A stretch of DNA of 4,509 nucleotides from IMG/VR virus record IMGVR_UViG_2690316115_000004; one strand, 5' to 3'. Below are positions 2,889 through 4,509 of the stretch, in pieces (within the stretch, counting starts at the first letter, position 1; every line of letters begins with the position of its first letter). Under the pieces are notes generated by a model. The model made no database searches. It worked only from the letters and a program-made list of their open reading frames with translations, and was not told the origin of the DNA. The position numbers and the translations under genes were made by a program. This DNA is from a virus (Duplodnaviria > Heunggongvirae > Uroviricota > Caudoviricetes).

Positions 2889-2964
2889 GGCCCTTTAGCT
2901 CAGTGGTGAGAGCGAGCGACTCATAATCGCCAGGTCGCTGGTTCAAATCCAGCAAGGGCCACCA
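2889..2964 (+). tRNA. ileZ: tRNA-Ile2 (anticodon CAU, lysidine type; formally also readable as Met), ileZ-like
   Basis: Manual cloverleaf: acceptor GGCCCTT/AAGGGCC, D-arm GCTC-AGTGGTGA-GAGC, anticodon loop CTCATAA (CAU), T-arm GCTGG-TTCAAAT-CCAGC, discriminator A and encoded CCA. 76 nt, closely resembling E. coli ileX as I recall it. Confidence 0.85.
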
Positions 2965-2965
2965 A

Positions 2966-3041
2966 CCGCCACTAGCCATCAGGAAAGAGCGTCAACCCTT
3001 TAAGTTGAGTGTGCGAGGTTCGAGTCCCCGGTGGTGGTCCA
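2966..3041 (+). tRNA. tRNA-like element in the argN slot, probably degenerate or a pseudo-tRNA (apparent anticodon UUU with C at position 33 and a weak D-stem)
   Basis: Exactly 76 nt between the flanking tRNAs. Acceptor CCGCCAC/GTGGTGG (one G-U), perfect anticodon stem TCAAC/GTTGA with loop CCTTTAA, T-arm CGAGG-TTCGAGT-CCCCG (one mismatch) and terminal TCCA. The D-stem has two mismatches and position 14 is not A. Confidence 0.4.
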
Positions 3042-3054
3042 TTATCGGTATTCT

Positions 3055-3128
3055 GCGTTGTTAGCTCAGCAGGACAGAGCAATTGCCTTCTAAGCAATCG
3101 GTCACTGGTTCGACTCCAGTACAACGCG
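3055..3128 (+). tRNA. argO: tRNA-Arg (anticodon UCU, reads AGA/AGG), argO-like; CCA not encoded
   Basis: Manual cloverleaf: acceptor GCGTTGT/ACAACGC, D-arm GCTC-AGCAGGACA-GAGC, anticodon stem ATTGC/GCAAT with loop CTTCTAA (UCU), T-arm ACTGG-TTCGACT-CCAGT, discriminator G followed by CTA rather than CCA. Confidence 0.85.
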
Positions 3129-3144
3129 CTACACTTATTTTCCC

Positions 3145-3168
3145 GGCTCGCTTTTGCGGGCCTTTTTT
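3145..3168 (+). terminator. Rho-independent terminator after the tRNA cluster (candidate tR')
   Basis: GGCTCGC (3145-3151), loop TTTT, GCGGGCC (3156-3162), a 7-bp stem with one U-G, followed by TTTTTT (3163-3168). Confidence 0.7.
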
Positions 3169-3211
3169 GTATCTGCGCCACGCCCGGCGCATACCAACCA
3201 CAGAGCCTTTC

Positions 3212-3221
3212 GGGGGGGGGG
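3212..3221. repeat. G10 homopolymer tract in the intergenic leader upstream of the TerB-like gene
   Basis: Direct read: C then ten consecutive G at 3212-3221. Long G runs are uncommon in enterobacterial DNA and are slippage-prone. Confidence 0.9.
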
Positions 3222-3303
3222 AGCTTACGGAGTGGTCAGTGTGACTTTCTCTGTGGGCAGATCGCTCCCGGGCGTTGGCTCACCCACCCAAAGGAACGTC
3301 ACG

Positions 3304-3736
3304 ATGTTTGGTATTTTGGGTAAAAAAAGCCCGCAGAGCGGCAACGGAAATTAAAAAGTTTGAAAAACGCGATCTGGCACAGGTGGTGATTAACGCCGCC
3401 TACCTGGTGGCCTGTGCAGATGGTGAATGTGAGGCTTCCTAGAAAGCGAAGATCGAACAGGTACTGCGTAATCAGCCTGCGCTGTACGCGTTTACGTCAG
3501 AAATTAATGCGATTAGCGCAACCATTATCGGTCAGCTGGATACGAACTTTAAAACTGGTCGTCGTGCGGCGTTACGTGAGATCGAGGATGTGAAACACGA
3601 TACGCGTGAAGCGGAAGATGTGCTGGATGTGGCGGTGGCCATTGCGGAGGCAGACGGCGAAATTGAGCCGGAAGAGCGCAAGGTGCTGGAAGAGATTGCC
3701 GGTGTTCTGGGTCTTCGTCTGGAGAATTACCTGTGA
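3304..3736 (+). pseudogene. TerB-like (tellurite-resistance TerB superfamily) gene, apparently disrupted by a +1 frameshift in an A7 run (3322-3328) and an in-frame TAG (3440-3442)
   Basis: AAGGA (3291-3295) sits 8 nt upstream of ATG 3304; this frame gives MFGILGKKSPQSGNGN then TAA at 3352-3354. The next frame from 3329 reads ARRAATEIKKFEKRDLAQVVINAAYLVACADGECEAS-TAG-KAKIEQVLRNQPALYAFTSEINAISATIIGQLDTNFKTGRRAALREIEDVKHDTREAEDVLDVAVAIAEADGEIEPEERKVLEEIAGVLGLRLENYL, ending TGA 3734-3736. The ADGE...E and AEADGEIEPEE segments look like the paired TerB motifs. Deleting one A restores a continuous frame from the ATG. Confidence 0.55.
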
Positions 3737-3900
3737 CGGTAAAACTGCGCCTGACTGTGGCTGCACTCCTGCTGTTTCTGGTGGTGATGGTGGATTTCAC
3801 CAGCAGAATCATGTCGGTGCTGGCGGATGGGGTGCTGGTCTGCGGCATTGTGGTATTGCTGTGGCCGGTGATAAAAAGAAACAGCCTGCATAATGCTTGA
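3733..3900 (+). CDS. Small hydrophobic protein (about 55 aa, two predicted transmembrane helices), function unknown
   Basis: GTG 3733 overlaps the TerB-like TGA (GTGA) with GGAGA at 3721-3725. Translation VTVKLRLTVAALLLFLVVMVDFTSRIMSVLADGVLVCGIVVLLWPVIKRNSLHNA, stop TGA 3898-3900. Internal ATGs at 3787 and 3811 are alternative starts. Below the 60-aa cutoff of the ORF track. Confidence 0.4.
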   Translation: MTVKLRLTVAALLLFLVVMVDFTSRIMSVLADGVLVCGIVVLLWPVIKRNSLHNA

Positions 3901-4101
3901 TTTTTTTGTTTGCTGTTTATTAAAAACACTTCTGCATGGTGAATCCCCCTGTGCGGTGGGGCAATCAGCAAGAAGGAATATGGGGTAATCGCGGATTCAG
4001 GTGCTGATACTGAATTCACCGGGAGGCACCCGGCACCATGCTTTGCCACAAAAGTGTTATTTCTGTTTTTCTCAAACTATCATCGTTATCCCTTTATTTT
4101 C

Positions 4102-4128
4102 GGCTGCGCATGGCGCGGCCTTTTTTTT
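4102..4128 (+). terminator. Rho-independent terminator upstream of the nanS-p-like gene
   Basis: GGCTGCGC (4102-4109), loop ATG, GCGCGGCC (4113-4120), an 8-bp stem with one U-G, followed by eight T (4121-4128). Confidence 0.75.
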
Positions 4129-4214
4129 ACGACCAGCCACTGGCAGATGGTCATCCTGTGATTTGATTCCGCTTCCGGCTTTTTAACTCTGTTCCTCTAC
4201 ACGGGAGAAATTCG

Positions 4215-4509
4215 ATGTCGATTAAACATTACGATGTTATCAGGGCGGCGTCGCCGTCAGACCTTGCGGAAAAGCTGACACACAAACTGAAAGAGGGCTG
4301 GCAGCCATACGGCGGACCGGTTGCCATTACGCCGTACACACTGATGCAGGCGGTGGCTATTGAAGGAGAGCCACAGGTCGGCCCTTCATCTGAGCCGGAT
4401 TGGTACTACGTCATCGTACTGGCCGGGCAGTCCAATGCCATGGCTTACGGTGAAGGGCTTCCGCTGCCGGATTCATACGATGCTCCGGATCCGCGCATTA
4501 AACAGCTGG
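4215..4509 (+). CDS. nanS-p: Prophage sialate O-acetylesterase NanS-p-like protein (DUF1737 N-terminal domain plus start of SASA/SGNH esterase domain); 3' end beyond the window
   Basis: GGGAGA at 4203-4208 then ATG 4215. Translation MSIKHYDVIRAASPSDLAEKLTHKLKEGWQPYGGPVAITPYTLMQAVAIEGEPQVGPSSEPDWYYVIVLAGQSNAMAYGEGLPLPDSYDAPDPRIKQL, open to the window end. The GQSN catalytic-serine motif and the DUF1737-like N-terminus match the YjhS/NanS family gene found downstream of stx in Stx phages. Confidence 0.8.
   Translation, partial: MSIKHYDVIRAASPSDLAEKLTHKLKEGWQPYGGPVAITPYTLMQAVAIEGEPQVGPSSEPDWYYVIVLAGQSNAMAYGEGLPLPDSYDAPDPRIKQL

Follow-up and report, generated by a model that had tools for sequence, protein, structure and literature searches.

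The window, i.e., the whole stretch of 4,509 nucleotides analyzed in this work, belongs to a lambdoid prophage of Shiga-toxin-type E. coli and represents its late regulatory region. Over 4.4 kb it is 99.9% identical to prophages of many O111:H8 and other Shiga-toxin-type E. coli, and at least 80% of it is covered at one place in 527 complete genomes. Genes for a DUF968 protein (586-1641), RusA (1642-2007) and the antiterminator Q (1998-2693) are followed by the terminator of the short region after Q (2754-2783) and by a plus-strand tRNA cluster (2889-3129). According to ARAGORN, Rfam and the NCBI annotation of near-identical loci, this cluster consists of a CAT tRNA (Ile2-type), a degenerate argN-like gene and an Arg(TCT) tRNA. 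A terminator scan placed an intrinsic terminator after the cluster (3145-3170, plus strand), which forms the upstream edge of a conserved two-gene cassette, tciA-tciB. Downstream of tciB, an Rfam match to the STnc100 sRNA (3905-4077, plus strand; 100.8 bits, threshold 47) precedes a DUF1737/esterase gene starting at 4215, with a further intrinsic terminator 3′ of the match at 4102-4128. In this late region, tciA and tciB lie downstream of Q, pR′/tR′ and the phage tRNAs, and the place they occupy after the tRNAs and ahead of the esterase gene presumably corresponds to that of the stx genes in Stx phages.

Just after Q, the plus-strand segment 2710-2783 ends in a strong hairpin and weakly resembles isrK and OrzO-P (19-27 bits, below threshold). 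Its position is the expected site of the short pR′-tR′ transcript on which Q acts. On the minus strand, at about 4095-4238, related RefSeq loci annotate a 144-nt 'hypothetical protein' pseudogene fragment that overlaps the start of the esterase gene and may be an annotation artefact.

The names tciA and tciB for the TerB-like and the DUF3927 gene come from phage records (JLK-2012, PPyecE). In the window the same arrangement was found, a TerB-like gene followed by a small overlapping DUF3927 gene. The latter, tciB (3733-3900, plus strand), is intact, encodes 55 amino acids and matches Pfam DUF3927 with 62.6 bits. It starts with a GTG that overlaps the stop of tciA (GTGA), a GGAG of its own lies 8 nt before this start, and all related loci have it annotated as intact. 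The tciA-tciB pair also occurs in JLK-2012, Evi, PPyecE, P1 and the Erwinia phage ChrisDB, and conservation of the cassette extends to loci with other tRNAs, or none, upstream of it.

The first gene of the cassette, tciA (3304-3736, plus strand, as are all features of the gene given below), spans 433 nt compared with 432 nt for the intact gene. Its ancestral start, ATG 3304-3306, is the one used by intact homologues. It is preceded by a Shine-Dalgarno-like AAGGA (3291-3295, read directly from the letters) with a spacer of 8 nt, a motif kept in every homologous locus aligned. In the window this ATG opens a frame of 16 codons only, which reads MFGILGKKSPQSGNGN and ends at TAA 3352-3354 according to sequence and translation. 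A run of seven A residues (A7, 3322-3328), one A above the A6 of the closest intact allele in our alignment, shifts the ATG frame by +1 relative to the frame that encodes the TerB-like protein. This TerB frame, in which codons begin at 3308 and 3329, extends from 3275 to TGA 3734-3736, with an amber TAG at 3440-3442 as its sole interruption. The TAG replaces GAG by a G-to-T change and corresponds to Glu46 in ATG numbering; the first in-frame start codon 3′ of it is GTG 3590. Sequence and translations agree in every point with the start, the frame length, the A7 run and the TAG position described for this gene in an earlier note.

With one A removed and the TAG read as a sense codon, the encoded protein matched Pfam TerB (PF05099) with 45.7 bits versus a cut-off of 24.4 (E = 9.5e-12), and residues 15-137 of this repaired protein matched Klebsiella TerB (PDB 2JXU, E = 3.1e-7). 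The TerB profile is thus recognized, and an uninterrupted frame for the whole domain is lacking. With a stop after 16 codons in the ATG frame and a TAG in the TerB frame, the window gene, judged from its sequence, is a pseudogene of the TerB family rather than a functional member. The TerB of the Klebsiella pneumoniae ter operon has the Pfam family in common with it, although sequence similarity is low, and belongs to a multi-gene plasmid or chromosomal ter cluster, whereas the window contains a two-gene phage cassette.

Five intact copies were compared with the window gene, those of JLK-2012, Evi and PPyecE and two chromosomal ones (L009 and L010). All five comprise 432 nt or 143 codons, start at the same ATG and have GAG at the position of the window's TAG. 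At the run, JLK-2012 tciA reads GGT AAA AAA GCC (A6), and Evi, PPyecE and the two chromosomal copies carry AAAAAGAAAA, with the run reading AAA AAG AAA ACC. The JLK-2012 TciA (AFB75444.1) and the 'TciA/TerB-like protein' of PPyecE_EH1910 represent the same gene in the same place, with an overlapping tciB next to it. Cassette DNA identity with the window is 87-91%, and the proteins are 92-95% identical to the repaired window sequence. In contrast to the window with its A7 and TAG, both copies are intact over 143 codons and combine A6 or AAAAAGAAAA with GAG. More distantly, phage P1, source of the gene name, encodes a TciA-TciB-TciC module in which TciA is 50-53% identical, tciB follows directly downstream and a tRNA gene is adjacent; it differs from the window in its third gene tciC, its intact tciA copy and its genomic setting.

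Glu at position 46 is present in every intact homologue examined. Both this residue and the N-terminal MFG..F.KK persist in homologues whose identity to the repaired window protein is 43-68%, namely those of Pseudomonas phage AF (43%), of P1 (TciA, 50%) and of an Erwinia jumbo phage. By this comparison, A6 and a sense codon represent the ancestral state, and A7 and TAG are both derived. The earlier note had proposed such an alignment as a check; the intact homologues do carry A6 (or AAAAAGAAAA) and the sense codon GAG, which supports the reading preferred there, namely decay of a cargo gene. We hence consider it very probable that tciA is present here as a pseudogene allele that arose by two inherited mutations from an intact 143-codon gene.

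The frequency of both lesions was determined in public genomes. For the TAG we used a 47-mer probe in which every 28-base seed word includes the T, so that only the T allele can seed. This probe matched at 1005 places, distributed over 577 of the 5426 complete E. coli genomes, and a single genome had up to five copies of the TAG allele. For comparison, tciA-like sequence in general occurred at 4036 places in 842 genomes, and roughly a quarter of the matches had the amber codon. At the A run, a 70-mer with A7 was found exactly in 554 E. coli records and its A6 version with identical flanks in four, a ratio that does not correspond to a phase-variable homopolymer. Three of the four A6 records were inspected: one (L011) has GAG and is annotated as intact with 143 codons, and two (L012, L013) have TAG. 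The allele with A7 and GAG, represented by an O157:H7 locus (L005), was the best place in 288 complete-genome records. The TAG probe detected 577 genomes versus 563 for the probe of the A7 region; from this it follows that some TAG copies lie on other N-terminal backgrounds, presumably as recombinants. Fragment ORFs derived from the TAG allele are found among public proteins as well, a 44-aa N-terminal one on 430 and 184 contigs and a 48-aa C-terminal one on 992 and 802 contigs, and the 55-aa ORFs from TTG 3275 had no exact match in the protein collection.

Sequencing or assembly error, which the earlier note had listed among its explanations, is rejected because of the 1005 places and 577 genomes with TAG and the 554 records with A7 versus four with A6. 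For the lesions to be homopolymer and base-call errors, the true genome would have to carry A6, GAG and an intact gene. A7 runs are indeed prone to indel errors under some sequencing chemistries, A6 does occur within the same flanks in the four records mentioned, and the window has a T-to-G change at 3318 that is not shared by the aligned tciA loci and leaves its N-terminal fragment without a counterpart in the protein collection. However, both lesions are identical in hundreds of independently assembled complete genomes from varied laboratories and platforms, a substitution that creates a TAG is not a typical systematic error, and the nearest full-length matches (99.9% over 4.4 kb) have the same pseudogene. 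We thus regard an error as extremely unlikely; both lesions are real inherited alleles. The pseudogene allele itself is real, heritable, widespread and already annotated.

The G of the window at position 3318 is not shared by any of the 13 tciA loci in the alignment, of which the eight closest have T and the more distant ones C. In the ATG frame the codon TTT thereby becomes TTG, and in the TerB frame TTG becomes TGG. The 44-aa fragment with this change is missing from a collection of 15 billion proteins; the change could be a private mutation or a base-call error. In addition, the window shows a few other single-base differences from the RefSeq pseudogene loci.

In NCBI/RefSeq, copies with the TAG are listed as pseudogenes and carry the remark 'internal stop'. 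Two such RefSeq entries, 'tellurite resistance TerB family protein; internal stop' (C6991_RS01730 and KP514_RS13685), share both lesions and the flanking genes with the window. Since the RefSeq feature starts at a TTG in the TerB frame, the frameshift versus the ATG remains unflagged and the internal stop alone is noted. This TTG corresponds to window 3308-3310. From it, NCBI annotates the A7/GAG allele (L005, CDS 569-997, 429 nt) as an intact protein of 142 residues, WP_001303509.1, which is found exactly on at least 993 contigs. The two lesions are not equivalent, as the TAG alone is unambiguously inactivating.

It is therefore conceivable, if doubtful, that the gene bears a single lesion: A7 would be tolerated by starting at TTG 3308 with an altered N-terminus (MVFLVKK...), and the TAG alone would have killed the copy. 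The public annotation and its many contigs, the 288 complete-genome records with A7/GAG as best place, and the frame 5′ of the A run, which is open and includes the TTG, are in line with this. In our estimate, however, TTG 3308 is a doubtful start. It lies 12 nt from the Shine-Dalgarno sequence and is overlapped by the better-placed ATG, which with its 8-nt spacer would capture ribosomes into the 16-codon dead end. Its use would moreover replace the N-terminus MFG..F.KK, which is conserved out to homologues of 43% identity. An open frame downstream of a recent frameshift is also what inertia would leave, and it is no sign of use. The earlier note had named a true start elsewhere as an observation that would overturn its view; with the annotated TTG 3308 this applies in part to the A7 run, but not to the TAG. 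Our preferred reading remains the allele with two lesions.

The frameshift and the stop could also be bypassed by programmed recoding, an explanation that the earlier note already rated as less likely and that found no support here. Ribosome or RNA polymerase would slip by +1 at AAA AAA A and the amber codon would be read through, which would yield TciA at a regulated low level. With the run phased as AAA AAA A, a tRNA-Lys could move by +1 and pair perfectly again in the TerB frame; phage tRNA genes are clustered just 5′ of tciA, and the rest of the frame is undamaged. However, neither the slip site nor the TAG is conserved. With their A6 or AAAAAGAAAA, homologues of 43-95% protein identity to the repaired window sequence need no shift of frame after the ATG, and at the position of the TAG every intact homologue examined has GAG or Glu, the diverged ones included. 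Furthermore, the three tRNA-like genes of the window have the anticodons CAT, TTT and TCT, and thus no CUA-anticodon tRNA that could act as a suppressor is encoded in it. The A run is short, and the 0 frame continues with AGC, a sense codon that does not count among the known hungry codons. The leader fold (3171-3310) gave no structure signal, and two independent events of low efficiency would multiply to a negligible yield. Taken together, we give recoding next to no probability.

The TTT gene of the cluster (2966-3041, plus strand) was called by ARAGORN as a tRNA-Lys with C at position 33 and an encoded CCA. Its Rfam tRNA score of 28.2 bits is slightly below the threshold of 29 bits, and in near-identical loci it is missing from the NCBI annotation. 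Apart from one missing base in the D arm, it can be aligned with argN, a tRNA-Arg (TCG) gene of two related loci (L005, L007), of which it is a decayed relative. Phage Evi has the same TTT version with the D-arm base present. As a decayed argN below the Rfam cut-off that is not annotated by NCBI, this tRNA-Lys(UUU) was rejected as a candidate for promoting slippage on Lys codons.

For the decay of tciA, which we prefer, the following order of events may be proposed. In a first step, most likely a slippage during replication, the A6 run at codons 7-8 would have gained one A. The TerB frame would thereby have lost its link to the conserved ATG and the Shine-Dalgarno sequence, with TTG 3308 and its 12-nt spacer left as the sole possible start. 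In a second step, the G-to-T change would have made Glu46 a stop, and the product would be truncated after 44-45 residues, upstream of most of the TerB-aligned region (residues 15-137). A7 as the first and TAG as the second mutation is the most likely order, as read from the allele combinations and not from a rooted tree, because A7/GAG copies exist and the TAG is found almost only on A7-lineage sequence. All inspected TAG copies are on this lineage, including two with A6; the two A6/TAG copies most simply are rare reversions or assembly slips. Full-length TciA would probably not arise from the window copy, while tciB is intact and has its own ribosome-binding site.

The doubly hit allele would then have spread among co-resident lambdoid prophages by recombination and prophage carriage. 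TAG alleles are found behind differing upstream genes, for example, Q in one locus (L001) and a DNA methyltransferase in another (L008), and the latter is a mosaic inside tciA yet retains A7 and TAG. Spread by recombination is thus indicated.

Between intact alleles, dN/dS was 0.01-0.05 with dS up to 0.66, which shows strong purifying selection on the intact gene. The A7 lineage has seven variable sites, with nonsynonymous changes at 3318, 3414, 3486 and 3728, the nonsense change at 3440 and synonymous changes at 3400 and 3436. This pattern fits neutrality (P = 0.78) and is unlikely at an omega of 0.04 (P = 3e-4), in a test of relaxed constraint that comprises seven sites from few recent, recombining alleles, among which dN/dS is inflated even for functional genes. 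The remaining TerB frame contains no further stops or indels. Such an undamaged frame fits a young pseudogene without proving loss of function.

The success of the allele might alternatively reflect a split gene with functional fragments, i.e., the 44-aa N-terminal one and the 48-aa C-terminal one from GTG 3590, or a selected loss of TciA. Its high frequency, its several copies per genome and its presence on different prophage backbones would agree with either, and the C-terminal fragment holds the second ADGE.E..E motif. However, hitch-hiking with the recombining late region explains the spread equally well. Visual inspection revealed no Shine-Dalgarno sequence ahead of GTG 3590, neither fragment covers the TerB alignment (residues 15-137), and the substitution pattern looks neutral, which makes functional fragments or an adaptive loss very unlikely.

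We may finally speculate that A7 is a working rearrangement of the start region, in which the 16-codon ATG frame laid over a weak TTG, or +1 slippage, throttles TciA. On this view, poly-lysogenic Shiga-toxin-type E. coli would profit from the loss of TciA, and the later amber allele may for this reason have reached up to five prophages in one genome. Nothing points to such an arrangement, and we consider it highly improbable.

The pseudogene allele of tciA has a meaning mainly for annotation hygiene, as RefSeq calls the A7-only allele intact on a doubtful TTG start. Three allele states are to be distinguished, A6/GAG, A7/GAG and A7/TAG. If TciA and TciB prove to have a role, for example, in stress tolerance or phage exclusion, strain comparisons must separate these three states. 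The literature found on tciA and tellurite mostly concerns P1-like plasmid prophages, and none of it addresses the A7/TAG allele.

The conserved 140-nt leader upstream of tciA (3171-3310) gave no signal for a structured RNA (z-score of -1.18, covariation term of -0.04), and no sigma-70-like promoter was found on the plus strand between the terminator at 3145-3170 and the ATG. The leader contains a tract of ten G residues (3212-3221, plus strand) about 83 nt 5′ of the tciA ATG, with no promoter-like site around it. The length of this tract, which sits outside the coding frame, varies among near-identical copies (G6, G7, G10 and G12), and more distant copies have GGGGGTG. It could be a truly hypermutable leader tract or reflect homopolymer noise in assemblies.

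In three unrelated phage types, lambdoid phages, P1 and an Erwinia jumbo phage, the tciA-tciB pair adjoins tRNA genes. In the retrieved P1 locus (601-1385), a tRNA-Met lies just after tciC, and in ChrisDB (79-909) a tRNA-Cys lies just before tciA. This adjacency could be a coincidence or mark a shared hotspot for accessory genes.
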